This document shows positions 4,356 to 59,154 of a stretch of 64,000 nucleotides of DNA, piece by piece. Source of the stretch: Bacteroidales bacterium. GTDB taxonomy: Bacteria > Bacteroidota > Bacteroidia > Bacteroidales > UBA3824. The notes below the pieces were generated by a model. That model searched no databases. It was not told the origin of the DNA and saw only the letters and a list, made by a program, of their open reading frames with translations. Position 1 is the first letter of the stretch, and each line of letters opens with the position of its first letter. The position numbers and the translations under genes are program-made. Location: assembly GCA_017544805.1 (NCBI GenBank), contig JAFYDK010000015.1, positions 6,858 to 70,857 on the forward strand. Reading direction: 5' to 3'.

Positions 4356-5498
4356 GTGAAAAGATGTTTTAAATTAATTTCGGTGTTGCTTTTAGCGGCA
4401 TCGGTTATCAGTTCATGCGGTACAAATACCGCTCAAGAAAAAAGCGAAGGCTTCAAAATTAAACGCGGAACAAATCTCAGTCATTGGCTCTCACAAAGCA
4501 CCGTCAGAGGCGAAGAACGCAAAAATCATATTCAAGAAGATGACTTCGCACGATTGGACAGTTTAGGTTTTGATCACGTAAGAATTCCTATCGACGAAGA
4601 ACAATTTTGGGACGAACAAGGCAACAAATTGCCCGAGGCTTGGAGTCTTCTTAAAAACGCCCTCAACCTTGCACGCAAATACAATATCCGTGCAATAGTA
4701 GACCTTCACATTATCCGTGCGCATTATTTTAACGCGGCAAACGAAGGCGGCAAAAATACGCTTTTTACAGACGAAAAAGCACAGGAAGGTCTTATTAACC
4801 TTTGGGGACAACTTCAAGATTCACTTATAAATTTCTCTACCGATTGGGTAGCATACGAGTTTATGAACGAACCCGTAGCCGAGGAACACGAACAATGGAA
4901 CAACGTTATCGCAAAAGTTCATAAAGCTATCCGCAAACGTGAACCGAACCGTACCTTAGTTATCGGTTCAAACCGTTGGCAAGGTGTTGAAACATTCAAA
5001 TACTTGAAAGTTCCCGAAAACGACAAAAACATTATTCTCAGTTTCCATTATTACAACCCGATGATTGTAACGCATTACGGTGCATGGTGGACCAATTTGA
5101 AAGATTTTCACGGTAAGGTTACTTACCCGGGAATTCCTGTTTCAAAAGAAGTTTATGAGGCTACACCCGATAGTATAAAACCTTTTATTGAGCAATACAC
5201 AACTGAAGAATGGAACAAAGAGAAGATTTATTCTCAAATGAAAGATGCTATTGATGTTGCTAAAAAATACGGTCTGCAACTATTCTGCGGCGAATGGGGA
5301 GTTTATTGCCCCGTTGACAGAGATTTGGCATACGCTTGGACAAAAGATATGCTCCAAGTTTTTGACGAGTTCAACGTAGCATGGACAACTTGGTGTTACG
5401 ATGCAGATTTCGGATTTTGGGATCAAGAAAAACATTGTTTCAAAGACAAACCTTTAGCAGAAATGTTAGGAGGGAAAAAACAAAAAACAAGAAAATAA
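4356..5498 (+). CDS. Glycoside hydrolase family 5 (cellulase/mannanase-type) lipoprotein
   Basis: GTG start 21 nt after the previous stop. Lipoprotein-like signal LLLAASVISSCG. GH5 acid/base motif YEFMNEP and nucleophile motif FCGEWG. Also RGTNLSHWL and HVRIPI. Confidence 0.75.
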   Translation: MKRCFKLISVLLLAASVISSCGTNTAQEKSEGFKIKRGTNLSHWLSQSTVRGEERKNHIQEDDFARLDSLGFDHVRIPIDEEQFWDEQGNKLPEAWSLLKNALNLARKYNIRAIVDLHIIRAHYFNAANEGGKNTLFTDEKAQEGLINLWGQLQDSLINFSTDWVAYEFMNEPVAEEHEQWNNVIAKVHKAIRKREPNRTLVIGSNRWQGVETFKYLKVPENDKNIILSFHYYNPMIVTHYGAWWTNLKDFHGKVTYPGIPVSKEVYEATPDSIKPFIEQYTTEEWNKEKIYSQMKDAIDVAKKYGLQLFCGEWGVYCPVDRDLAYAWTKDMLQVFDEFNVAWTTWCYDADFGFWDQEKHCFKDKPLAEMLGGKKQKTRK

Positions 5499-5519: not shown

Positions 5520-7454
5520 ATGCCGAAAAAAGAATTAATAAAAATTCCCGCAATACAATATGCGGTAAATTATTTTTTTGCATTTGCACTTTTTCTTTTG
5601 TGCAGAATTATTTTTATAATAGCTAACAAAGAATATTATAGCGACACGGAATTTTCTCATTTATTGAAACTTATATATGGAGGCTTAAAGTTTGACTTTG
5701 CCTCCATTTTTTACCTTTCGGCAGTAAGTTTTTTTATGATGATAATTCCCATGAAATTCTCTCTAAAAAGCACTTACACGAAAATTGCGAAATATTTTTT
5801 TGTTATTCCCGTTTCCATCGGACTTTTCGCCAATCTTTATGATACGGCAATGTTTCCTTTCAACGGAAGACGCACGAATTTTTCATTTTTCAAAGAGTTT
5901 TCCAACGAAAACAATCTTTTAGGAGTTTTATTGAAAGGTTTTGTGGATTTTTGGCCGCTGACACTTGCCGCCGCCGTAATGATTTTTTGCCTTGTAAAAT
6001 TTTATTACCGTCCGAAAATCAAAGAAGAGGATTTTTTAGATAAAAAATACACTCTTAAAGTACTTCCGATAACATTGCTTTTCATTTATTTTTTCATGGC
6101 AGGTTTAAGGGGTTCGCTCATAATTGATGCCGATCACAGACCTATGAACATGAACAACGCTAACGAATACATAAAGAAAAGTAACGAATCGGCTATCGTA
6201 TTAAACACGCCGTATTGTATTTTGCGCACAGCAGGAAAAATTTCGTTCAGCGACCCCGATTATTTTCCAAAAGACGAACTTGAAACTATTTATACCCCAT
6301 TGCACACACCTAAAAAGGAAAAAGAATTTAAAAAGCTCAACGTCGTAATCTTAATTTTAGAAAGTTTCGGCAAAGAATATTCCGGTTTTTTCAACAATAA
6401 TGAAGGTTATACGCCTTTTTTGGATTCGCTTTATCAACAAGGTCTTTCTTTTAAAAATTCCTTTGCAACGGGCAGAAAATCCATAGATGCAATGCCGAGT
6501 ATTTTAGCAGGCATACCGTATCTGACCGATCATTTCTTTATGGGAATGTATTCTAACAACAAAGTCAATAGCATTGCTTCACTTTTGAAAACAAAAGGTT
6601 ATTATACAGCATTTTATCACGGTGCACCAAACGGCAGCATGGGCTTTTTGAATTTTTCAAAATTAGCCGGTTTTGAGGATTATTACGGCATGACAGAATA
6701 TTGCAACGATACCCGTTTCAATGCAATGAACGATTTTGACGGACATTGGGCAATTTGGGACGAAGAATTTTTGCAATTTTACGCCAAAAGCATGAACGAA
6801 ATACCACAACCCTTTGTAACAGCGTGTTTTACGGCAACATCCCACAATCCGTTCAGAATACCTGAAAAATACAAAGAAAGGTTTCAAGAAGGTCCACAAC
6901 CTATTACAAAATGTATTCAATACACCGACAATGCGATAAGGAATTTTTTCAACACCATGAAAAAATATCCGTGGTACGAAAACACGGTTTTTGTTATAAC
7001 CGCTGACCATACAAATCAGACGTTAAGCCATGAATACACAACCGACAGAAATGTTTTTAAAGTTCCGATTCTGTTTTATCATCCGGGCAGCAATATCAAA
7101 AAGATTTCGCCAAAACTTGTATGTCAAACAGATATAACGCCTTCGATTTTGGATTATCTCGGTTTTGATGAGCCGTATATCGCTTTCGGCAATTCGTTTT
7201 TCTCTCAAACAGACACTTTGGGATATGTCGTAAATTACAGCGAACCGCTTTATCAAATTTCTAAAGGAGAATTTTTCTTGCAGTTTGACGGACAAAAAGA
7301 AACCGGATTTTTTAAACCCGAAACTGACATTTTCTTAAAAGATAACCTCATCGGAACACACAAAGAAGAGGAAGATGAAATGTTAAAACTATTAAAAGCC
7401 GAAATTCAGCAATACCATGAAAGAATGATTGAAAACAGATTAACGGTTCAATAA
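5520..7454 (+). CDS. LTA-synthase/phosphoglycerol-transferase-like sulfatase-superfamily membrane protein
   Basis: About 5 N-terminal TM helices, then an alkaline-phosphatase/sulfatase-type domain (VVILILESFGKEYSG, GRKSIDAMPSILAG, FVITADHT). Confidence 0.7.
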   Translation: MPKKELIKIPAIQYAVNYFFAFALFLLCRIIFIIANKEYYSDTEFSHLLKLIYGGLKFDFASIFYLSAVSFFMMIIPMKFSLKSTYTKIAKYFFVIPVSIGLFANLYDTAMFPFNGRRTNFSFFKEFSNENNLLGVLLKGFVDFWPLTLAAAVMIFCLVKFYYRPKIKEEDFLDKKYTLKVLPITLLFIYFFMAGLRGSLIIDADHRPMNMNNANEYIKKSNESAIVLNTPYCILRTAGKISFSDPDYFPKDELETIYTPLHTPKKEKEFKKLNVVILILESFGKEYSGFFNNNEGYTPFLDSLYQQGLSFKNSFATGRKSIDAMPSILAGIPYLTDHFFMGMYSNNKVNSIASLLKTKGYYTAFYHGAPNGSMGFLNFSKLAGFEDYYGMTEYCNDTRFNAMNDFDGHWAIWDEEFLQFYAKSMNEIPQPFVTACFTATSHNPFRIPEKYKERFQEGPQPITKCIQYTDNAIRNFFNTMKKYPWYENTVFVITADHTNQTLSHEYTTDRNVFKVPILFYHPGSNIKKISPKLVCQTDITPSILDYLGFDEPYIAFGNSFFSQTDTLGYVVNYSEPLYQISKGEFFLQFDGQKETGFFKPETDIFLKDNLIGTHKEEEDEMLKLLKAEIQQYHERMIENRLTVQ

Positions 7455-38378: not shown

Positions 38379-40199
38379 TCAATCATTTGAATCCTTATGA
38401 AAGTATTCATAAACTTTTTGAGCTTTAGACAAATCCACTACTTTATTCAGTTCTAAGAGCGATGCGGCGGAAACAGCGTTCACAGAACCGAACTCAGAAA
38501 GCAATTTTGCGATTGTTTTATCGCCGATGCCGTCAATATCCTCCAAGACGGAATGAATCATTCCTTTTGATCGTTTGTTTCTGTGAAACGTTATACAAAA
38601 TCTATGAGCCTCGTCCCTTAAATGTTGAATAACCTTCAACGTCGGGGAATTCTTATCCAAATATAGCGGAATGTTATCTTCGGGGAAAAATATTTCTTCC
38701 AAACGTTTAGCAATTCCTATCAAAGCTATTTTCGGATAAAGTCCGAGAGCTTTCAAAGTTTCGTAAGCGCAACGCAACTGACCTTTACCTCCGTCCACGA
38801 TTACAAGCTGTGGCAAAGGTTTACCTTCATCATGCAAACGTTTGTAACGTCTAAAAACAACTTCCCGCATCGTAGCGAAATCATCAGGACCTTCCACGGT
38901 CTTAACATTAAACAGCCTATAATCTCTTTTGTATGGTTTTCCGTTTCTAAAGACCACGCATGACGAAACAGGATTTGTACCTTGAATATTTGAATTATCA
39001 AAACATTCAATATGTCTTGGCTCAACATCGAGTTGCAAATCCTTCTGCATTGTTTTCATCAAATTATTAACGCTCTTATCAGGGTCAATCAGCGAGCGTT
39101 GTTTTTGTTGCTCGGCCATAAAAAGTTTGCAGTTTCTTTCTGACCATTCCAAGAGTTGTTTTTTATCACCTGTTTTAGGAACGGTAATTTTATAATCGTT
39201 AAAACCAAAATCAACGTCAAAAGGCAAAATCAATTCATCCGCTTTGTCGCCGATATTCAAATCAGAAAAATGAATATCCGCCATAGCGGTCAAAAGAATA
39301 TCTTTTTTATCTTCATCCACCTTAGCTTTTATCTCCCTCGTAAAAGACCGCAAAATCAAACTTTGCGATACTTTCATAAAATTGACATAATAAAAATCGT
39401 CTACAGCATCATACAAAATAGAAAAAACCTCTACAGTATTCGGCACATTAACGGAGATAACATTTTTAGCATGATAAGAAATTAAAACATCATATTTCTC
39501 CTTTATTTCCTGAGCCTTTTCAAACTCCATTTTTTCGGCTAATTCCGCCATCTGAGAGCGCATCATACTGATAACTTCCGCAGTTTTACCATTAAGAATT
39601 TTTCTGACGGTCGCAATATACTCGTTATATTTTTCTTTACTAACCTGACCAATACAAGGAGCACAACAGTTTTTTATATGATAATCCAAACAAACGTCAT
39701 ATTTTCCATTCTTAACAAGTTGTTCTGTCATAGGCGTTCTACACGTCCTTAAATGAAACAACCTCCTAAACATATCCAAAACATTACGCATCACAACAAC
39801 CGAAGTATAAGGACCAAAATACATCCCCTCCCCTGCTATTCTCTTTCTCGTAAAATAAACCCTCGGATAATCCTCGTTAGAAATACAAATCCACGGATAC
39901 GTCTTATCATCCTTCAACAAAATATTATACCTCGGCTGAAACTGCTTAATCAACTTATTCTCCAACAACAAAGCATCAGTCTCCGTATCAACACAAATAT
40001 GCAAAACATCAACAATATGCCTTACTAAAATAGCAGTTTTACCAACTTGATTTTTCTCACGAAAATAAGAAGAAACTCTATTTCGCAGATTTTTCGCCTT
40101 ACCAACATAAATAACAGTACCGTTTTTGTCCAAAAAATTATAAACACCAGGACTAAACGGTAAAGTCTTTACTTTATATTCCAACGTATTTTTATCCAT
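38379..40199 (-). CDS. uvrC: Excinuclease ABC subunit C
   Basis: GIY-YIG motif GVYNFLDKNGTVIYVGKAKNLRNRVSSY, UvrBC-interaction region, endonuclease domain, C-terminal (HhH)2 IDGIGDKTIAKLL. Confidence 0.95.
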   Translation of the reverse strand: MDKNTLEYKVKTLPFSPGVYNFLDKNGTVIYVGKAKNLRNRVSSYFREKNQVGKTAILVRHIVDVLHICVDTETDALLLENKLIKQFQPRYNILLKDDKTYPWICISNEDYPRVYFTRKRIAGEGMYFGPYTSVVVMRNVLDMFRRLFHLRTCRTPMTEQLVKNGKYDVCLDYHIKNCCAPCIGQVSKEKYNEYIATVRKILNGKTAEVISMMRSQMAELAEKMEFEKAQEIKEKYDVLISYHAKNVISVNVPNTVEVFSILYDAVDDFYYVNFMKVSQSLILRSFTREIKAKVDEDKKDILLTAMADIHFSDLNIGDKADELILPFDVDFGFNDYKITVPKTGDKKQLLEWSERNCKLFMAEQQKQRSLIDPDKSVNNLMKTMQKDLQLDVEPRHIECFDNSNIQGTNPVSSCVVFRNGKPYKRDYRLFNVKTVEGPDDFATMREVVFRRYKRLHDEGKPLPQLVIVDGGKGQLRCAYETLKALGLYPKIALIGIAKRLEEIFFPEDNIPLYLDKNSPTLKVIQHLRDEAHRFCITFHRNKRSKGMIHSVLEDIDGIGDKTIAKLLSEFGSVNAVSAASLLELNKVVDLSKAQKVYEYFHKDSND

Positions 40200-40217
40200 T
40201 TCTTTTAATGTTATTAT

Positions 40218-40373
40218 CGCTCGCCGCGGGGCGTTCCCTTTTGAAAAAGGGAACCGGAAAACTTTTAGGAAACATGAATTTGGAATGCCTTTAAGGGCAT
40301 TCCAAATTCATATTTCTTTAAAAGTTCTTTGGTTCTTTCTTTCAAGAAAGAACAGCCCCCGCGGCTTGAGCGG
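40218..40373 (-). repeat. 156-nt GC-rich modular palindromic element, copy A (MITE-like or structured-RNA-like)
   Basis: Base-by-base comparison gives: 40218..40267 is the reverse complement of 56606..56655 (50/50), and 40321..40373 is the reverse complement of 56500..56552 (53/53). The central 53 nt (40268..40320) is an unrelated near-perfect palindrome, ATGAATTTGGAATGCC/GGCATTCCAAATTCAT. Confidence 0.9.
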
Positions 40374-42009
40374 CAGTAATTACATCAACGAATTGAAAAT
40401 CGTTGACATTAAATAAACCTTTATCGGTTATTTTGAGTTTAGGGATTACGGGCAGAGCCATAAACGCGAGAGTCATGAATGGAGCTGTAAGTTTGCAACC
40501 GAGGGCTTTTATTAGAATTGAGAGGCTTGAGTATTTCTGAGCTGCAGCCTGACAAGAAGTATCGGTCATAATACCTCCGATTTTGAGTTGCATATCGAAA
40601 ATATTTTGACCTGTTACAACTGCGAGCCCACCTTTGTTTGAGATTATTCTATTAATACATTTAACAATAGAACTATCATCAACGCCTACGCAAATTATAT
40701 TATGACTATCATGTGCAACACAGCTTCCTATTGCTCCGAATTTCAAACCAAATCCGTTAATAAAACCTATCGCGGGTTTTGAATTTAAATTATATCGGTT
40801 AAGACAAACAATTTTTAAAATATCTTTTTTTACATCAGACACTATTTTTTCGTCTTTTATCTCTAAGTTTCCCGTGAAACTTTCCGTAAAAAGTTCTTTA
40901 TCTATAACTTTTATAACACGAACTTTGTCGGTTTTTGATTTAATTTCAATATCAGACGTCTTAATTTTCTTACAATTAAAATTATTTATAGGCTTGTTGT
41001 CTGTTACTTCAAAAAACTTCTTTTTGTCTTTTATGAGAGTTTTTCCATCAATAACAACCTCTAAAATGTTAAAATTTTTAATATCATCAACAATAACAAA
41101 ATCCGCAGAATCGTCTTTTTGAAGTAATCCGACATTAAGATTATAATGCTTTATAGGATTAAGAGTAGCGGCTCTTAAAACATCAAAAAAATCGTACCCC
41201 TCTCCTACTAACGTTTTAACCCGCTCAAATAAATATCCTTTCATTAAATCATCAGGATGAAAATCATCACTACAAAGCATCAATTTTTCGGGTGATTCTT
41301 TGAATAAAGGAGCAAGAGCATTGAGATTTTTAGCAGCAGAACCTTCCCTAATTTGGATTTTCATGCCGTATTTTATCTTCTCTCGAGCCTCTTCTAATGT
41401 CATACATTCGTGATCGGTAGATATTCCGGCAGCAGCATATTGTTTAACTTGCGCCTCAGAAATAGCAGGAGCATGACCATCAATAGGCTTATTAAGCTCT
41501 TTTGCGGCGTTAATTTTAGCAACAACTTCCTTATCGTTATTCAAAACACCAACAAAATTCATCATTTCAGAAAGACAAACAACATTGTCCTTCTTTAAAA
41601 GTTTTTTCACACTTTCAGCATTAAGTATTGCTCCTGAAGTTTCAAAACTTGTAGAAGGCACACATGAAGGCACCCCGAAAAATATTTTCATCGGTGAAAG
41701 TGCGGCATCTTTTAGCATAAAATTAAAGCCGTCTTCACCGCATACATTTGAGATTTCATGAGGATCTGTAACAACGGCAACAACGCCGTGCTGCAATGCC
41801 ACCTCAGCGAAACGTTGCGGTGTTACCATACTACTCTCAATATGAATATGAGAATCCACAAGACCGGGCAATATAAACTTAGAAGATTGCACATCGCATT
41901 TTTCTATCTTTTTTATAACTCCGTCCTCAACAAAAATCTTTCCCTGAAAGATTTCTTTATTCACAACATCAACAATATTTCCACTATACTCCATCACAAT
42001 TGCCTCCAT
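40342..42009 (-). CDS. ade: Adenine deaminase
   Basis: Amidohydrolase metal motif LPGLVDSHIHIESSM. DGHAP, TDHE, about 555 aa. The last 10 codons and the stop lie inside repeat element A. Confidence 0.85.
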   Translation of the reverse strand: MEAIVMEYSGNIVDVVNKEIFQGKIFVEDGVIKKIEKCDVQSSKFILPGLVDSHIHIESSMVTPQRFAEVALQHGVVAVVTDPHEISNVCGEDGFNFMLKDAALSPMKIFFGVPSCVPSTSFETSGAILNAESVKKLLKKDNVVCLSEMMNFVGVLNNDKEVVAKINAAKELNKPIDGHAPAISEAQVKQYAAAGISTDHECMTLEEAREKIKYGMKIQIREGSAAKNLNALAPLFKESPEKLMLCSDDFHPDDLMKGYLFERVKTLVGEGYDFFDVLRAATLNPIKHYNLNVGLLQKDDSADFVIVDDIKNFNILEVVIDGKTLIKDKKKFFEVTDNKPINNFNCKKIKTSDIEIKSKTDKVRVIKVIDKELFTESFTGNLEIKDEKIVSDVKKDILKIVCLNRYNLNSKPAIGFINGFGLKFGAIGSCVAHDSHNIICVGVDDSSIVKCINRIISNKGGLAVVTGQNIFDMQLKIGGIMTDTSCQAAAQKYSSLSILIKALGCKLTAPFMTLAFMALPVIPKLKITDKGLFNVNDFQFVDVITAAQAAGAVLS

Positions 42010-42094
42010 TTTTTTTAAAGTTTCTATTCACAAAACCAACACCATCAAAACAAAAAGTGTAAATATAAAATTCTTTTTCTCTCAAAAGAAAAAT

Positions 42095-43951
42095 TTATCG
42101 TCCTAAATATATCAAAAGCGTATTGATATCAGCAGGGCTAACACCGGGAATTCTTGAAGCCTGACCAATCGTTTTCGGCTTAATACGTGCTAATTTTTGA
42201 CGACATTCCGTTGATAAAGAAAGTATAGAAGCAAAATCCAAACCATCAGGTATTGTTACATAATCCAAACGGGATAATTTTTCAGCGGTTGCCTCTTCCC
42301 TGTCAATATAACCCTGATACTTAATTTTTATTTCCGCAGACTCTATTTCGTATCTATCAAAACGCTTCAAAAACGGAAATAAATCTTTTAATTCTTCCAA
42401 ATTAACTTCCGTTCTCAAAATTATCGCACTCAATTTATTACCTTGAGTGAGCGGTTTTCCACCTTTTTGTTGGATATAACCATTAATTCTATCACAAGAA
42501 ACAGAAGTATTTTTACAATATTCCAATATTTTTTCAACATTTTGTTTCTTATTTTGATAGAAATCATAACGTTCTTTATCAGCCAACCCAAGACCAAAAC
42601 CCTTCTCAGTAAGCCTTTCATCAGCATTATCTTGCCTTAAAAGTATACGATATTCCGATCTCGAAGTAAACATCCTATAAGGCTCATCAACACCTTTAGT
42701 CACTAAGTCATCAATTAAAACACCAATATAAGCATCTTTCCTTGACAAAATAAACTCTTTGTTTCCCGTGAAACTTAGTGCAGCATTCAATCCTGCCATC
42801 AAACCTTGACACGCTGCTTCCTCGTAACCAGTTGTTCCGTTTACTTGTCCAGCAAAATAAACGCCCTTAATTACCTTTGACTCTAATGTATGATACAGCT
42901 GTGTAGGATCAAAATAGTCGTATTCTATAGCATAACCCGGACGGAAAATTTTCGCTTTTTCCAAGCCCGGAATAAGTCTAATTGCAGCATACTGAACTTC
43001 AAATGGTAATGAAGAAGAAAATCCGTTAAGATAATACTCACACGTATCAGTACCCTCCGGCTCTAAAAAAACAGGATGTGATTGTTTGTCAGCAAAGGTA
43101 ACGATTTTTGTTTCCACTGACGGGCAATATCTCGGTCCTGTAGATTTTATAGTACCATTAAACAAGGGAGAGCGATCAAAACCCTTACGTAATTCATCAT
43201 GAACCTTAGGATTAGTATAAGAAATATAACATTTTCTCTGTGGCAAACGTTCAATTTTATGTGCCATAAACGAGAAAGAATCGGGATTTTCATCACCATC
43301 TTGAGGTGTCATCGCCGAAAAATCTATCGTTCTACCGTCAATTCTCGCAGGTGTACCAGTCTTCATCCTCGAGGTTTTAACACCCGCTTTAAGCAAAGCT
43401 TCAGTTAAACCACGAGCAGGAATCTCCCCTATCCTACCGCCGACAGCTTGATTTTCGCCAACGTGCATCAATCCATTTAAGAATGTTCCTGCTGTAATAA
43501 CAACCTTTTTACATTTAAATTTCACACCAAAAACTGTTTCAACGCCTTGAATTTCGCCATTTTCAACTTCAATATTTTTGACCGTATCTTGCCAAAAATA
43601 TAAATTCGGTACTTTTTCAAGCAACATTCTCCAATTAATCGAGAACTTCGTTCTATCACATTGCGACCTCGGCGACCACATTGCAGGACCTTTTGAGCGG
43701 TTCAACATTCTAAATTGTATCGAACTCATATCCGTAACAACACCCGTTAAACCACCAAGAGCATCAATTTCACGTACAATTTGCCCTTTAGCAATACCAC
43801 CAATAGCAGGATTACAAGACATCTGAGCAAATTTTGTCATATCCATCGTAATAAGCAAGGTCTTAACACCAAGCCTTGCAGCAGCATACGCAGCCTCACA
43901 GCCTGCATGTCCCGCACCAACAACGATTATATCATATTCTTCAATCATCAT
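42095..43951 (-). CDS. mnmG: tRNA uridine-5-carboxymethylaminomethyl synthesis enzyme MnmG (GidA)
   Basis: YDIIVVGAGHAGCEAA FAD motif, GQMSCNPAIGG-like SCNPAIGGIAKG, and conservation along the full length. Confidence 0.97.
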   Translation of the reverse strand: MMIEEYDIIVVGAGHAGCEAAYAAARLGVKTLLITMDMTKFAQMSCNPAIGGIAKGQIVREIDALGGLTGVVTDMSSIQFRMLNRSKGPAMWSPRSQCDRTKFSINWRMLLEKVPNLYFWQDTVKNIEVENGEIQGVETVFGVKFKCKKVVITAGTFLNGLMHVGENQAVGGRIGEIPARGLTEALLKAGVKTSRMKTGTPARIDGRTIDFSAMTPQDGDENPDSFSFMAHKIERLPQRKCYISYTNPKVHDELRKGFDRSPLFNGTIKSTGPRYCPSVETKIVTFADKQSHPVFLEPEGTDTCEYYLNGFSSSLPFEVQYAAIRLIPGLEKAKIFRPGYAIEYDYFDPTQLYHTLESKVIKGVYFAGQVNGTTGYEEAACQGLMAGLNAALSFTGNKEFILSRKDAYIGVLIDDLVTKGVDEPYRMFTSRSEYRILLRQDNADERLTEKGFGLGLADKERYDFYQNKKQNVEKILEYCKNTSVSCDRINGYIQQKGGKPLTQGNKLSAIILRTEVNLEELKDLFPFLKRFDRYEIESAEIKIKYQGYIDREEATAEKLSRLDYVTIPDGLDFASILSLSTECRQKLARIKPKTIGQASRIPGVSPADINTLLIYLGR

Positions 43952-55129: not shown

Positions 55130-55400
55130 TTTTATAATCATAATTATAATTATCTCCATTATTTTCATAATTATAATTATGATTTTTTGCTTTTATAATT
55201 TTTATAATAATGATTATGATTTTTTGCTTTTATAATTTTTATTATGATTTTTATTTTATAATTTTTATAATAATGATTATGAATTTTTACTTTTATAATT
55301 TTTATAATAATGATTATGAATTTTTTACTTTTATAATTTTTATAATAATGATTATGATTTTTTATTTTTATGATTTTTATAATAATGATTATGAATTTTT
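55130..55400. repeat. AT-only tandem repeat, about 7-8 copies of a 37-38-bp unit (candidate DNA-unwinding element of oriC)
   Basis: The core ATAATAATGATTATGA recurs at 55204, 55267, 55304, 55342 and 55379, with spacings of 63, 37, 38 and 37 nt (the 63-nt gap holds a truncated copy). A variant ATAATTATAATTATGA lies at 55167. Unit sequence: cttttataatttttataataatgattatgattttttg. Confidence 0.85.
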
Positions 55401-55539
55401 TATTTCTGTGATTATAAAAACCATTATCACGAATTTTATTTTTATAAAAATCATAAAAAGTTTTTTCTCCTCTATAAAAATTCCCCAAAAATCACCACCC
55501 TTCTTCGCTAAAAATAAAAATAATATATTTTTTAAATAT

Positions 55540-56056: not shown

Positions 56057-56497
56057 ATGAAAATCAATAAATTATTTATGGCATCTGACCATGCCGGCTA
56101 TGAGTTGAAACTCTTTTTAAAAGATTATTTAGTAAAAAAAGGTTTTGTTGTGGAAGACCTCGGCACTAATTCTGCCGATAGCTGCGACTACGCAGACTAC
56201 GCTCACCCCCTTGCTGAAAACGTTGAAAAAAATCCCGAATTCTACGGTATAACTATCTGCGGAAGCGGTAACGGTATCTCTATCACCGCTAACAAACATC
56301 AGGGTATTCGCGCAGCTCTGTGTTGGAATAAAGAAATTTCACGCCTCGCCCGCGCTCACAACAACGCTAACGTATTGTCTTTGCCCGCTCGCTTTATCTC
56401 TAAAGACGAAGCCGTAGAAATACTTGAGGCTTTCTTGAACACCGAATTTGAAGGTGGCAGACATCAACGCAGAATAGAAAAAATTCCGGTGAAGTAA
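56057..56497 (+). CDS. rpiB: Ribose-5-phosphate isomerase B
   Basis: MASDHAGYELK, CGSGNGISITANK, RAHNNANVLSLPARF, GGRHQRRI. Confidence 0.93.
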   Translation: MKINKLFMASDHAGYELKLFLKDYLVKKGFVVEDLGTNSADSCDYADYAHPLAENVEKNPEFYGITICGSGNGISITANKHQGIRAALCWNKEISRLARAHNNANVLSLPARFISKDEAVEILEAFLNTEFEGGRHQRRIEKIPVK

Positions 56498-56499
56498 GA

Positions 56500-56655
56500 C
56501 CGCTCAAGCCGCGGGGGCTGTTCTTTCTTGAAAGAAAGAACCAAAGAACTTTGTGAGATATTAATTAGGGAAAGCCTTTTGGGGCTTTCCCTAATTAATA
56601 TCTCTTAAAAGTTTTCCGGTTCCCTTTTTCAAAAGGGAACGCCCCGCGGCGAGCG
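56500..56655 (+). repeat. 156-nt GC-rich modular palindromic element, copy B
   Basis: Left arm ccgctcaagccgcgggggctg + hairpin ttctttctt/aagaaagaa + ccaaagaacttt. Central 53-nt cassette with a 22-bp perfect stem, GAGATATTAATTAGGGAAAGCC/GGCTTTCCCTAATTAATATCTC. Right arm taaaagttttccgg + hairpin ttccctttt/aaaagggaa + cgccccgcggcgagcg. Confidence 0.9.
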
Positions 56656-56995
56656 TCATAACTCCGCAAATCGCTCCTATGCTGTCTGCGAGCATATCGA
56701 AATAATCGAATCCGCGCCATGGTATAAAGTATTGAATTATTTCGATTAGGATACCGTAAACAGTTCCAATTAAAATGATTTTTATTTTATCGGAGGTTTT
56801 GAGAATCTTTTTTTCAAATCCTATTAATGCTGATAAGATGAAAAAAATGCCGAAATGGACTATTTTGTCAGCGTGCGGAATATGAAATTTTGTAGGGTCT
56901 TCATCGTGAGGAAGATCTACTTTTATGGTGCAGCCGATAAGCATTATCACTGCCCATATAATACTGAATTTGTAATTTTTAATTTTGTTTAACAT
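56591..56995 (-). CDS. VanZ-family membrane protein
   Basis: Start at MLNKIKNYKFSIIWAV. Four TM helices. HFGIFFILS and the D..AD..G-type end DMLADSIGAICG. The last ~21 codons and the stop lie inside repeat element B. Confidence 0.65.
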   Translation of the reverse strand: MLNKIKNYKFSIIWAVIMLIGCTIKVDLPHDEDPTKFHIPHADKIVHFGIFFILSALIGFEKKILKTSDKIKIILIGTVYGILIEIIQYFIPWRGFDYFDMLADSIGAICGVMTLAAGRSLLKKGTGKLLRDIN

Positions 56996-58127
56996 GTCGG
57001 GACTGTATGTGCACATTCCTTTTTGTGTAAGGAAATGCGGTTATTGCGATTTTTATTCCGTTAAATGCGGCAAAGATAATCATTTTATAGCTGTGTTTAT
57101 GAAAAATATAGTTAAAGAAATTATATTAAAATCGTATCTTTTTGAAAACGAAACGATTCAGACAATATATTTCGGCGGCGGGACACCCTCTATCCTACCC
57201 TTTGAAATGATTGAAACTATTTTTAATACAATTCGTGATAATTATAAGCTTTCTGAAAATTTGGAATGTACGATTGAGATTAATCCTGAACACGCTACGG
57301 AGGAATACTTTTCTGCTTTGAAAAATTCCGGATTTATAAACCGTTTGTCGGCGGGGTTTCAGGCGATGGACGACCAGGGCTTGAAATACCTTGGCAGAAA
57401 TCATTCTGTAAAAGATAATTATCGATATTTGAATTTATGTGAAAAATACGGTTTTGATAATTTTTCCGTTGATTATATTTTCGGTTATGAAATATTGACG
57501 GAAAAGGAAATTGAGAAGAGCATGAAGTTTTTTGCTGATAAAAAAATCCCGCATATTTCGGCTTATAGTCTTGGTATTGAAGATAATACGATTTTTTATA
57601 AAAAACTTTTGAGCGGAAAGATTCATAAGCCTGATGATGAGTTTTTTTTGCGTCAGTTCCGTTTAGTTCATTCCTTGTTGGAATCTCAAGGGTATAATCA
57701 TTATGAGATTTCCAATTATTCTTTACCTGAAAAACATTCCCGTCATAATTCTAATTATTGGGATTTTGTTCCGTATTTGGGTTTTGGTCCTTCGGCACAT
57801 TCGTATTATAATAATTCACGGTCTTGGAACAGCTGCCGCTTGCCTGAGTATTTTCAACAGATAGACGAGCAAAAACTTTTTGAGGAAAACGAGGTTTTAA
57901 CGCCGACAGATATTTTCAACGAAAAGATTATGTTAGGGCTCAGAACGAGTAAAGGGCTTAATATTTCTGCTTTAAAAAGCTGTTTTCCTCTGTTTTTTGA
58001 TAGTTTTATAAAAAAAGTTAAAAGTAGAGAATTTGTTGAATATTTTGAGCTTAATTCTAATTATTTGAAATTAAATTTAGATGGAATTTTCATTTCTGAT
58101 TATATAATTTCGGAATTGTTTGAATAA
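56994..58127 (+). CDS. hemW: Radical-SAM HemN-like protein (heme chaperone HemW family)
   Basis: YVHIPFCVRKCGYCDF (CxxxCxxC), IYFGGGTPS, C-terminal HemN_C-like region. The start is probably MSGLYVH at 56994. Confidence 0.85.
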   Translation: MSGLYVHIPFCVRKCGYCDFYSVKCGKDNHFIAVFMKNIVKEIILKSYLFENETIQTIYFGGGTPSILPFEMIETIFNTIRDNYKLSENLECTIEINPEHATEEYFSALKNSGFINRLSAGFQAMDDQGLKYLGRNHSVKDNYRYLNLCEKYGFDNFSVDYIFGYEILTEKEIEKSMKFFADKKIPHISAYSLGIEDNTIFYKKLLSGKIHKPDDEFFLRQFRLVHSLLESQGYNHYEISNYSLPEKHSRHNSNYWDFVPYLGFGPSAHSYYNNSRSWNSCRLPEYFQQIDEQKLFEENEVLTPTDIFNEKIMLGLRTSKGLNISALKSCFPLFFDSFIKKVKSREFVEYFELNSNYLKLNLDGIFISDYIISELFE

Positions 58128-58196: not shown

Positions 58197-58844
58197 TTAG
58201 AAATTGTAACCAATATTTATCATAAAACAATGATTGAAATTATTTGGTCTATCAAACGAGTATAGTCCAACTTCGTATGCTGCACCAAAGTAAAAATTAT
58301 GAAAATTAATTCCGCAACCTAAATTCACACCCCAATCAAAACGTTTGAATTTATTTTCTTTAAACGGATAAACTTTTTCATAAACTGGATAAAACTTACC
58401 GTCAGATGCAAGGTTACTACCTACTTCTGTCTTATAACAACTTGAAACTCCGTATGCAAAATAAAAGCCGGCTTGTAGTTCTAATCCTATTTTTTCAGTT
58501 AAATTTTTCTGTAAAACAACTAACGAAGGTGTTTCTAAATAGTTTAACGAAGTATTCCATTCACTATGGTCAGGAAAATTTTCTCCTTTCATAGAATAAT
58601 AAATACCGGGACGAAGCACTACATTGTCATTTATTTTTATATTTGCTATTACTCCAAAATTTGCCGCACTTCTATTTTCCGAAGATTCATTATGCGGAAT
58701 AAATGATGCTACATTTGATAAATTATAACCTGCTCTTATACCAAAAGTTAAACTTCCGTTATAAGAATTTCCTTCTTGTGCAATTCCTGAGGTAATACCA
58801 CAAAGGAAAATTGCAAATAATAATGCTAATCTTTTCATATTCAA
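58197..58844 (-). CDS. Small outer-membrane beta-barrel (porin-family/OmpW-OmpA-like barrel)
   Basis: Signal ...GIAQ. Alternating aromatic/Gly beta pattern. C-terminal MINIGYNF. Confidence 0.6.
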   Translation of the reverse strand: MNMKRLALLFAIFLCGITSGIAQEGNSYNGSLTFGIRAGYNLSNVASFIPHNESSENRSAANFGVIANIKINDNVVLRPGIYYSMKGENFPDHSEWNTSLNYLETPSLVVLQKNLTEKIGLELQAGFYFAYGVSSCYKTEVGSNLASDGKFYPVYEKVYPFKENKFKRFDWGVNLGCGINFHNFYFGAAYEVGLYSFDRPNNFNHCFMINIGYNF

Positions 58845-59154
58845 ATATTATTAATATTTTAATTGTTAAAAATTTAAATTTCATTTTTTGACATTGTGAA
58901 TATAAGAATTTCCAGAGGTTGAAAGCAAGCGTTTTTTATTGTTTTTTCCGATAGTGATTATTGGTTTAACGAATTAGGCACTTGTCAGCTTATATTACCG
59001 TGGGGGCATACCCACGGCACAATGCGTATTAAAATGCCCAAAAACATTAGGTTTATTTATTGAGAACATCTTTTTTATGTTTTAAAAAAAAGCTGTTTAT
59101 TTTGAGTTTTACGCCATTTTTATTGAAAAAGTTATCGGTATAAGTTAATCGGCG

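Follow-up and report, generated by a model that had tools for sequence, protein, structure and literature searches.

What is the 156-nucleotide (nt) block that lies between ade and uvrC in a 64,000-nt stretch of DNA (the window) from contig JAFYDK010000015.1 of an uncultured rumen Bacteroidales bacterium, and how did it come to separate these two genes? The original prediction described this block as a GC-rich, multi-hairpin element that fills the ade–uvrC spacer, and called it copy A. Copy A is, with a probability of roughly 0.65, one copy of a dispersed, non-coding and non-autonomous palindromic insertion element that resembles MITEs (miniature inverted-repeat transposable elements) and REPINs, which are doublets of repetitive extragenic palindromic (REP) sequences. 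Such an element would be moved in trans and transcribed passively within the operon.

The coordinates and length given for copy A are right, and every module listed in the original prediction is present. From position 40373 to 40218 on the minus strand, which is the direction of ade and uvrC transcription, copy A consists of an a-end outer arm, hairpin 1, an inner segment, a central cassette, a second inner segment, hairpin 2 and a b-end outer arm, namely CCGCTCAAGCCGCGGGGGCT, GTTCTTTCTTGAAAGAAAGAAC, CAAAGAACTTT, the 53-nt cassette, TAAAAGTTTTCCG, GTTCCCTTTTTCAAAAGGGAAC and GCCCCGCGGCGAGCG. Both 9-bp hairpins, TTCTTTCTT/AAGAAAGAA and TTCCCTTTT/AAAAGGGAA, are found, and both arms of the 16-nt inverted repeat ATGAATTTGGAATGCC in the cassette are exact (40274–40289 on the plus strand and 40296–40311 on the minus strand). 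The term "GC-rich block" applies to the outer arms only, with GC contents of 81% and 94%; GC falls to 32% in the interior and amounts to 44.9% over the element as a whole, compared with 36.0% for the window. Copy A is non-coding, and the sole reading frames across it are the run-on ends of the adjoining genes. It is identical in three other metagenome contigs of the same species.

Comparison with relatives indicates that copy A inserted into an overlap between the ade stop and the uvrC start. Relatives whose Ade identity is about 70% have no spacer: ade overlaps uvrC there as ATGA (locus L024) or TAATG (L027). The Ade proteins of relatives end at about ...FVDVI. In the window, Ade continues into a tail that is read from the a-end of the element, with the element-derived codons at 40342–40371 and the TGA stop (40344–40342) inside hairpin 1. 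The element therefore does lie between ade and uvrC as predicted, and it ends 18 nt before the uvrC ATG at 40199, but it does not simply fill a spacer, because the last ten codons and the stop of ade belong to it and relatives have no spacer there. RGIG1595, a goat-rumen Bacteroidales metagenome-assembled genome (MAG), represents a sister species of the window organism (DNA identity 89.7–95.0% over two shared regions). Its Ade has a different foreign tail, RSPRGVPFCKREPENF followed by a stop. This tail is encoded by the b-end, as the element has the opposite orientation there; the cassette also differs from that of copy A. The annotated neighbourhood of copy A is ybeY-mnmG-ade-uvrC.

A second copy in the window, copy B, lies between the rpiB stop (56497) and a vanZ-like open reading frame (ORF), in an annotated rpiB/vanZ/radical-SAM neighbourhood. 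Its cassette (56553–56605) differs in sequence from that of copy A and is again a perfect palindrome. At six loci of relatives with 84–88% RpiB identity, the distance between the convergent stops of rpiB and vanZ is 0–3 nt in five cases and 25 nt in the other. The VanZ protein of the window has lost about 13 native C-terminal residues of its relatives and has 21 element-encoded residues instead. The ade–uvrC overlap and the abutting rpiB/vanZ stops in relatives thus indicate that both window copies are insertions into near-spacerless gene junctions, where the native ORF ends were replaced in both cases.

Further copies, which the label copy A had implied, are found not only in the window, where BLAST detects copy B, but also in other genomes. 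A search with a degenerate arm pattern yields 20 loci in reference genomes: at least 13 in RGIG1595 and the others in RGIG1614, RGIG6747, Tb.RUG.530 and a Hadza MAG named "uncultured Eubacteriales". Across these copies the family is modular: an outer stem and two AT-rich hairpins, each with its own third half-site, enclose a palindromic cassette in the centre. The outer stems fall into three to four types (CCGCTCAAGCCGCGGGGGCTG, CCGCTCGCCGCGGGG(G)CG and CGCCTCATGCCGGCGGGGCAG, plus a hybrid). The local hairpins (9–10 bp) are of type a (GTTCTTTCTT..AAGAAAGAAC), type b (GTTCCCTTTT..AAAAGGGAAC) or a T-rich variant, and each is followed by C and the third half-site, AAAGAAC or GGAAAAC (RRARAAC). 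The central cassettes comprise at least five types, all but one of them near-perfect palindromes of 17–35 bp. The cassette of copy A is found in no other copy and is linked to other cassettes only via changes that are compensated on both halves. Outer-arm, hairpin and cassette types are freely combined among the copies, with modules shuffled from one to another, and the termini of the element, CCGCTC...GAGCG(G), lie inside imperfect outer arms of 15–21 nt.

The element also changes more quickly than its flanks do: it is inverted, its cassettes are exchanged and its loops flip, but its hairpin arms are constant. With the a-to-b arm order unchanged, the central loop is either CCTAAA or, in other copies, the complementary TTTAGG; hairpin 1 mostly has the loop TGAA, but L022 and L091 have TTCA. 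Between the window and RGIG1595, the arms are 100% identical at the copy B locus (L005) and 100% and 96% identical at the copy A locus (L006), while the flanking genes are 89.7–95.0% identical. Because the arms are nearly identical next to flanks that are 5–10% diverged, they are subject either to constraint or to concerted evolution.

Neighbouring genes around the family loci were called by a simple ORF heuristic. Eight of 14 independent Bacteroidales loci are between convergent genes, six between co-directional genes and none between divergent genes. Each of the 14 has one or more neighbouring ORFs that end no more than a few nt from the element or inside it. Where a downstream gene starts next to the element, its start codon is 17–21 nt past the element terminus.

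Some RGIG1595 copies (the second copy of L007, L011, L016, L017, L021) have on either side an extra outer module, about 32 nt long, with the pattern CAATGAT...CAC-stem-loop-stem-GTGA(A/G)TG. These modules have small covarying hairpins, CACTACC/GGTAGTG, CACTGCC/GGCAGTG and CACAGCC/GGCTGTG, and the copies that bear them form a five-hairpin composite of about 220 nt. In Tb.RUG.530, the left flank of a single element (L019) is that of one RGIG1595 locus and its right flank that of a second (L009 and L015), either because copies recombined or because the assembly is chimeric at the repeat.

Folding of the copy A region reveals a very strong structure. The RNA fold of the 191-nt region on the minus strand has an energy of −95.6 kcal/mol, compared with −41.9 ± 4.1 kcal/mol for shuffled sequences (z = −13.2; none of 200 shuffles as good), and the plus strand gives z = −12.7. 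As single-stranded DNA, the region folds at −55.9 kcal/mol (z = −9.9). The four-way-junction fold of the original prediction is the minimum-energy fold of copy A as single-stranded DNA. As RNA, however, a long single rod (−90.1 kcal/mol) is marginally better than the four-way junction (−88.3 kcal/mol), with less than 2 kcal/mol between them.

Covariation supports the local hairpins, and hence the four-way junction, over the rod. In an alignment of the arms of 45 two-armed family elements, both local hairpins are fully paired, and their pairs vary in a compensatory way, with GC, CG or UA as the closing pair and UA or CG at three to four other positions. Pairing of the same columns across the arms, as in the rod, gives no compensatory change, a mismatch at the closing pair in 25 of the 45 elements and scores below those of every shuffle. 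Because the local hairpins covary and the cross-arm pairing does not, the four-way, cloverleaf-like fold is the conserved one. The complete pairing of the hairpins is partly by construction, since the aligned elements had been picked for perfect 22-nt palindrome hairpins (49 of 70 two-armed elements); the covariation is not affected by this choice. With a less biased anchor, consisting only of the hairpin 5' half and the inner segment, perfect 9-bp stems are found in 213 of 229 arms, with 2042 Watson–Crick pairs, 10 G–T pairs and 9 other mismatches. Since there is no excess of G–T pairs over other mismatches, the constraint appears to be symmetric on both DNA strands rather than of the kind expected for RNA.

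The hairpin arm is not confined to Bacteroidales. A metagenome scan gives at least 120 loci, and among the matches listed nearly all are in contigs with 57–72% GC. These high-GC relatives have an arm, GTTCTTTTTTGAAAAAAAGAACCAAAAAACTTTT, a variable 40–60-nt centre and a mirrored second arm (often CTTC...GAAG), together with purine-rich/pyrimidine-rich outer arms; about half of the high-GC arms among the matches listed are single, without a partner. One locus (L144, ~4866–5000) is a hybrid of an exact Bacteroidales-type a arm and a 24-nt hairpin arm of the high-GC type, and another (L032) has an exact a arm within 67.5% GC DNA, so that the Bacteroidales and high-GC families are continuous. A 33-nt arm is common, in identical or almost identical form, to Bacteroidales, a Clostridia-type MAG, high-GC environmental bacteria including an Acetobacteraceae plasmid, and one Microviridae genome. 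Pseudoroseomonas cervicalis (Acetobacteraceae) is a cultured carrier, with the element between the stop of one gene and the ribosome-binding site of the next, and the high-GC relative is present on two Pseudoroseomonas plasmids. The Bacteroidales element was not found in the plasmid search, and an E. coli match was rejected as low-complexity chance. Both Bacteroidales arm types are absent from IMG/VR, while the T-rich arm occurs in 37 high-GC IMG/VR viral contigs as ordinary intergenic copies.

The Microviridae genome (L151; MG945182.1, Microviridae sp., cattle blood) is the sole arm-bearing record among 50,697 phage records. At 5790–5960 it carries a half element, AAAAGTTTTTTGGTTCTTTTTTTCAAAAAAGAAC, with a Bacteroidales-like GC outer arm, TGCCGCCCGC, in the main non-coding region of this single-stranded DNA phage, adjoining a GC-rich hairpin. 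This half element could mark the phage as a vector for the element or as a target of it, or be a clue to a single-stranded DNA mechanism. A phage origin of the element was rejected, as this microvirus is the single GenBank phage with a half element and the Bacteroidales arm types are absent from IMG/VR.

Two arms lie tail to tail in L052 (5810–5877), which together with L144 shows module exchange across sub-families. In 12.7 kb of a high-GC metagenome contig (L095, 1194–9515) there are three elements with two arms each, and two arms that are single. The single arms lie on either side of one FAD-oxidoreductase gene, facing each other, and each is within about 12–35 nt of a gene boundary. In the Hadza MAG (CAKSUT01, ~50% GC; L008 4380–5030, L013 and L023), the intergenic regions are packed with varied repeated hairpin modules in mosaic order, and this looks like an exceptionally repeat-rich genome. 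A 650-nt stretch of L008 folds with z = −10, and the a arm is just one module there. A large ornate structured RNA was rejected as an explanation of this 650-nt insert because it is a mosaic of many repeated hairpin modules.

How would such an element work? Each arm contains the half-sites GTTCYYT, ARRGAAC and RRARAAC, which may constitute the binding module of a trans-acting protein encoded elsewhere. Recognition would most likely require the element to be folded, whether in single-stranded DNA or into a cruciform four-way junction, much as HUH/Y1 enzymes of the RAYT (REP-associated tyrosine transposase) or TnpA type recognise hairpins. Template switching or gene conversion within and between the palindromes could keep the stems perfect and flip the loops. 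At the ade–uvrC locus, the element would be carried passively in the transcript, with uvrC transcribed by read-through, and the insertion would have ended the former translational coupling of the two genes. Like REPs and bacterial interspersed mosaic elements (BIMEs), this highly stable RNA structure probably blocks 3'-exonucleases or serves as a processing site.

Several observations weigh against an insertion element of this kind. Empty sites are known only from relatives that are about 12–30% diverged at the protein level, and no transposition event has been seen directly. No target-site duplication and no target consensus were found at about 38 element ends and in the two empty sites compared, where the flanks often form inverted rather than direct repeats. 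The 100% hairpin pairing noted above is in part an artefact of selection, the arms do not have the GTAG/GTGG foot of classical REPs, and no arm-like sequence is among the REP sequences tabulated in PMC6006769. Identity of a 33-nt arm across phyla is unusual for a selfish MITE and could point to a conserved cellular function. The search for a mobilising enzyme was also negative throughout. No transposase, RAYT or recombinase was found beside any copy, a regular-expression search for the HUH...Y motif found none in 1.18 Mb of loci, and all-against-all clustering of 3,449 ORFs from 140 loci yielded only housekeeping families and no recurrent neighbour family. Pfam searches of 30 window proteins, together with precomputed Pfam matches, gave no transposase, recombinase or integrase domain. 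There is nevertheless a precedent: RAYT/TnpA-Y1 subclass 2.6 occurs mostly in Bacteroidetes (PMC6006769), and long "atypical" palindromes lie next to Bacteroidetes RAYT genes of this subclass (Quentin et al. 2018, PMC6006769).

The element might instead be a classical MITE, that is, a deletion derivative of an insertion sequence with a DDE transposase. The CCGCTC...GAGCGG ends would then be recognised in double-stranded form as terminal inverted repeats, and the hairpins inside would be incidental. Small size, a non-coding nature, multiple copies, inverted termini and empty sites in relatives all agree with this, and MITE families commonly have common ends and differing interiors. In this family, however, the outer arms are the least conserved module, with three to four types in Bacteroidales and purine-rich versions in high-GC relatives, and the part that is conserved across phyla is the subterminal hairpins. 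A target-site duplication is lacking at every one of the ~38 ends. Neither a full-length element nor an autonomous insertion sequence with the same ends was found in the 1.18 Mb of loci, and facing arm pairs 0.8–4 kb apart enclose only housekeeping genes (leuB-, cysK-, thyX-, rlmN-like and similar). A classical MITE is considered unlikely.

Transcription across the element bears on a second alternative, in which it is a host-selected, cis-acting RNA that punctuates operons by stabilising the upstream mRNA, by providing an RNase III site or by tuning the downstream gene, uvrC. The sequence that follows copy A on the transcribed strand, ATAATAAC, has no T-run. A terminator scan found no terminator-like site on the minus strand at 40200–40373, the only terminator-like matches being on the plus strand; an intrinsic terminator, with a GC stem and a U-run on the transcribed strand, is rejected, in agreement with the original view that this is not a simple terminator. 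The TAnnTTTG box, said to be missing between the element and uvrC, is indeed absent from the minus strand throughout 38728–42416, and a promoter role is rejected on this ground. The original prediction held that uvrC must either be read through the element or start inside it. Read-through from upstream is the simplest course, and an internal promoter is unlikely because there is no promoter box and because the RGIG1595 ortholog is inverted and has another cassette. Rfam 15 at gathering thresholds gives no match in the window and only tRNAs in 22 related loci; below threshold, E-value scans of copy A and of the long L008 version give only generic noise from miRNA precursors with long hairpins, and ARAGORN finds no tRNA or tmRNA in the window. 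The original failure to recognise any named repeat or RNA family thus agrees both with Rfam 15 and with full-text sequence searches of the literature. A cis-acting RNA would fit an element that in every case is transcribed together with the 3' end of one or more genes and is never in a divergent promoter region, and it would also fit the extremely stable RNA, the compensatory stem changes and the conservation of the arm across phyla. It is harder to reconcile with both orientations at one locus in sister species, with differing cassettes, with relatives that do without the element and have overlapping genes, and with insertions that damaged ORF ends. Perfect Watson–Crick stems without an excess of G–U pairs are also a better fit to constraint on both DNA strands. 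Such an RNA is a rather improbable explanation.

Least likely is a folded single-strand recombination site (attC-, Xer- or phage attachment-like) or a scar left behind when an element, for instance a single-stranded DNA phage, integrated; it would then not itself be transposable. The element's 100–160 nt imperfect palindrome with variable centre, bulged outer stem and AAC/GTT-ended boxes, its place immediately behind stop codons with the next start ~18 nt further on, and the half element in the non-coding region of the Microviridae genome all recall such sites. However, the boxes are GTTYYYY/RRRRAAC and not the attC cores GTTRRRY/RYYYAAC, the neighbours are housekeeping genes without cassette arrays, the window yielded no integrase or recombinase, and the arm is in just 1 of 50,697 phage records.

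The MITE/REPIN-like insertion element can be taken one step further. The 33-nt arm, with its GTTC-N14-GAAC hairpin and third RRARAAC half-site, might be the recognition module of a putative cross-phylum enzyme that acts on folded single-stranded DNA, inserts four-way-junction elements at gene ends (stop-codon junctions) and lets the cassette swap and flip. This proposal is speculative and we regard it as doubtful. If true, the family would be a new class of hairpin-guided mobile element and not another MITE.

Table 1. Features of the two element copies and their adjoining genes in the window.
Feature	Position	Strand	Remarks
Element copy A	40218..40373	−	156 nt
a-end outer GC arm, copy A	40354..40373	−	CCGCTCAAGCCGCGGGGGCT; pairs with 40218–40232; within the ade ORF, codes part of the foreign Ade tail
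Hairpin 1, type a, copy A	40332..40353	−	GTTCTTTCTT-GA-AAGAAAGAAC; perfect local palindrome
Inner segment, copy A	40321..40331	−	CAAAGAACTTT; third half-site AAAGAAC, direct repeat of the hairpin 1 3' half
Central cassette, copy A	40268..40320	−	53 nt; perfect palindrome ATGAATTTGGAATGCC / GGCATTCCAAATTCAT, loop CTTAAA
b-arm inner segment, copy A	40255..40267	−	TAAAAGTTTTCCG on the minus strand, CGGAAAACTTTTA on the plus strand, which has third half-site GGAAAAC
Hairpin 2, type b, copy A	40233..40254	−	GTTCCCTTTT-TC-AAAAGGGAAC; perfect local palindrome
b-end outer GC arm, copy A	40218..40232	−	GCCCCGCGGCGAGCG on the minus strand; ends 18 nt before the uvrC ATG
ade (adenine deaminase ORF)	40342..42009	−	last 10 codons AAQAAGAVLS and stop from the element
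uvrC	38379..40199	−	start overlaps the ade stop in relatives without the element
Element copy B	56500..56655	+	156 nt; arms of 53 and 50 nt identical to copy A (BLAST within the window)
rpiB	56057..56497	+	stop 2 nt before the a-end of copy B
vanZ-like ORF	56591..57016	−	last ~21 codons (56591–56655) are element sequence

Three other features of the window lie apart from the element copies. Tandem repeats rich in AT, whose periods are about 37, 75 and 100 nt, occupy 55161–55437 in a 945-nt gap upstream of rpiB and yield spurious Ile/Lys/Asn-rich ORFs on both strands. An 840-bp segment (58205–59047) with a gene for a 215-residue beta-barrel outer-membrane protein (58197–58844, minus strand) is missing from the orthologous RGIG1595 contig and is therefore an indel between the sister species. 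The GC skew is −0.13 to −0.29 between about 36000 and 54000, which coincides with an unbroken run of minus-strand genes, and is about 0 beyond 54 kb.

In this uncultured rumen bacterium, both the odd "spacer" and the aberrant C-termini of two proteins are explained by the element. As a marker it is easily recognised, but it can mislead gene calling because ORFs run into it, and it can mislead assembly because contigs join across its copies. The ade–uvrC locus is also a natural experiment, in which a coupled gene pair has been split by a structure of −90 kcal/mol in either orientation, and it offers a test of the effects on operon expression in Bacteroidota.

Among known systems, bacterial MITEs such as Correia/NEMIS, RUP, Nezha and the Rickettsia palindromic elements are similar in being 100–200 bp long, with inverted termini and many dispersed copies that are co-transcribed with their neighbours. 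The element has several properties of a MITE: it is non-coding and shorter than about 600 bp, and it has terminal inverted repeats and dispersed copies whose presence or absence varies between genomes. Rickettsia palindromic elements and Correia elements also extend or alter ORF ends. However, neither a target-site duplication nor a parent insertion sequence was found for the element, its conserved part is the subterminal hairpins and not the termini, its central cassette is variable yet perfectly palindromic, and every characterised insertion is at a near-spacerless gene junction. Integron attC sites, for example the Vibrio cholerae repeats, are likewise imperfect palindromes (60–140 nt) with a variable centre and bulged bases, located between a stop and the next start. 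They function as folded single strands, which is only proposed for the element, and they differ in that the element does not match their core boxes, has no integrase and no cassette array, and lies next to core housekeeping genes. The inverted terminal repeats of parvoviruses such as adeno-associated virus have small palindromes nested in a larger outer one, which form a branched hairpin with flip and flop orientations. The likeness is one of form only, in that loops are inverted by replication or repair through a hairpin; these repeats are eukaryotic viral telomeres, and no relationship is proposed.

The closest counterparts are the REPIN/REP-BIME systems with their RAYT Y1 transposases (Bertels & Rainey 2011, PMC3116915; PMC6006769). 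Like the element, they are non-coding and extragenic, have two inverted hairpin units around a spacer that fold into a long hairpin, occur as singlets and doublets (here in the high-GC relatives), are mosaics of modules without target-site duplication, and lie at gene 3' ends, where they are transcribed within operons. In contrast, the hairpins of the element are AT-rich (GTTC...GAAC), start with GTTC, CTTC or TTTC after variable preceding bases and have no GTAG/GTGG (or CGTC) foot. Each of its arms has a third half-site, and the element has a GC-rich outer stem, a large exchangeable central palindrome and a four-way junction. No RAYT gene was found near its copies in the 1.18 Mb of loci. Furthermore, REPIN–RAYT systems are lineage-specific and vertically inherited, whereas the arms of the element cross phyla. 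Exact-sequence and keyword searches of the literature found no description of the family, which is undescribed as far as could be found there and in Rfam. It is thus an undescribed family within a known kind, that of REPIN- and MITE-like palindromic repeats, with four unusual traits: a four-way architecture with a swappable palindromic cassette, insertion at gene ends, no target duplications and a cross-phylum arm. A conserved AT-rich hairpin module in at least three phyla, insertions at near-spacerless junctions without target duplications, and perfect flipping palindromes suggest a mobilising or binding protein not yet linked to such sequences. If found, this cognate protein would extend knowledge of mobile DNA of the hairpin and single-strand type beyond the IS200/IS605 and REP–RAYT systems.

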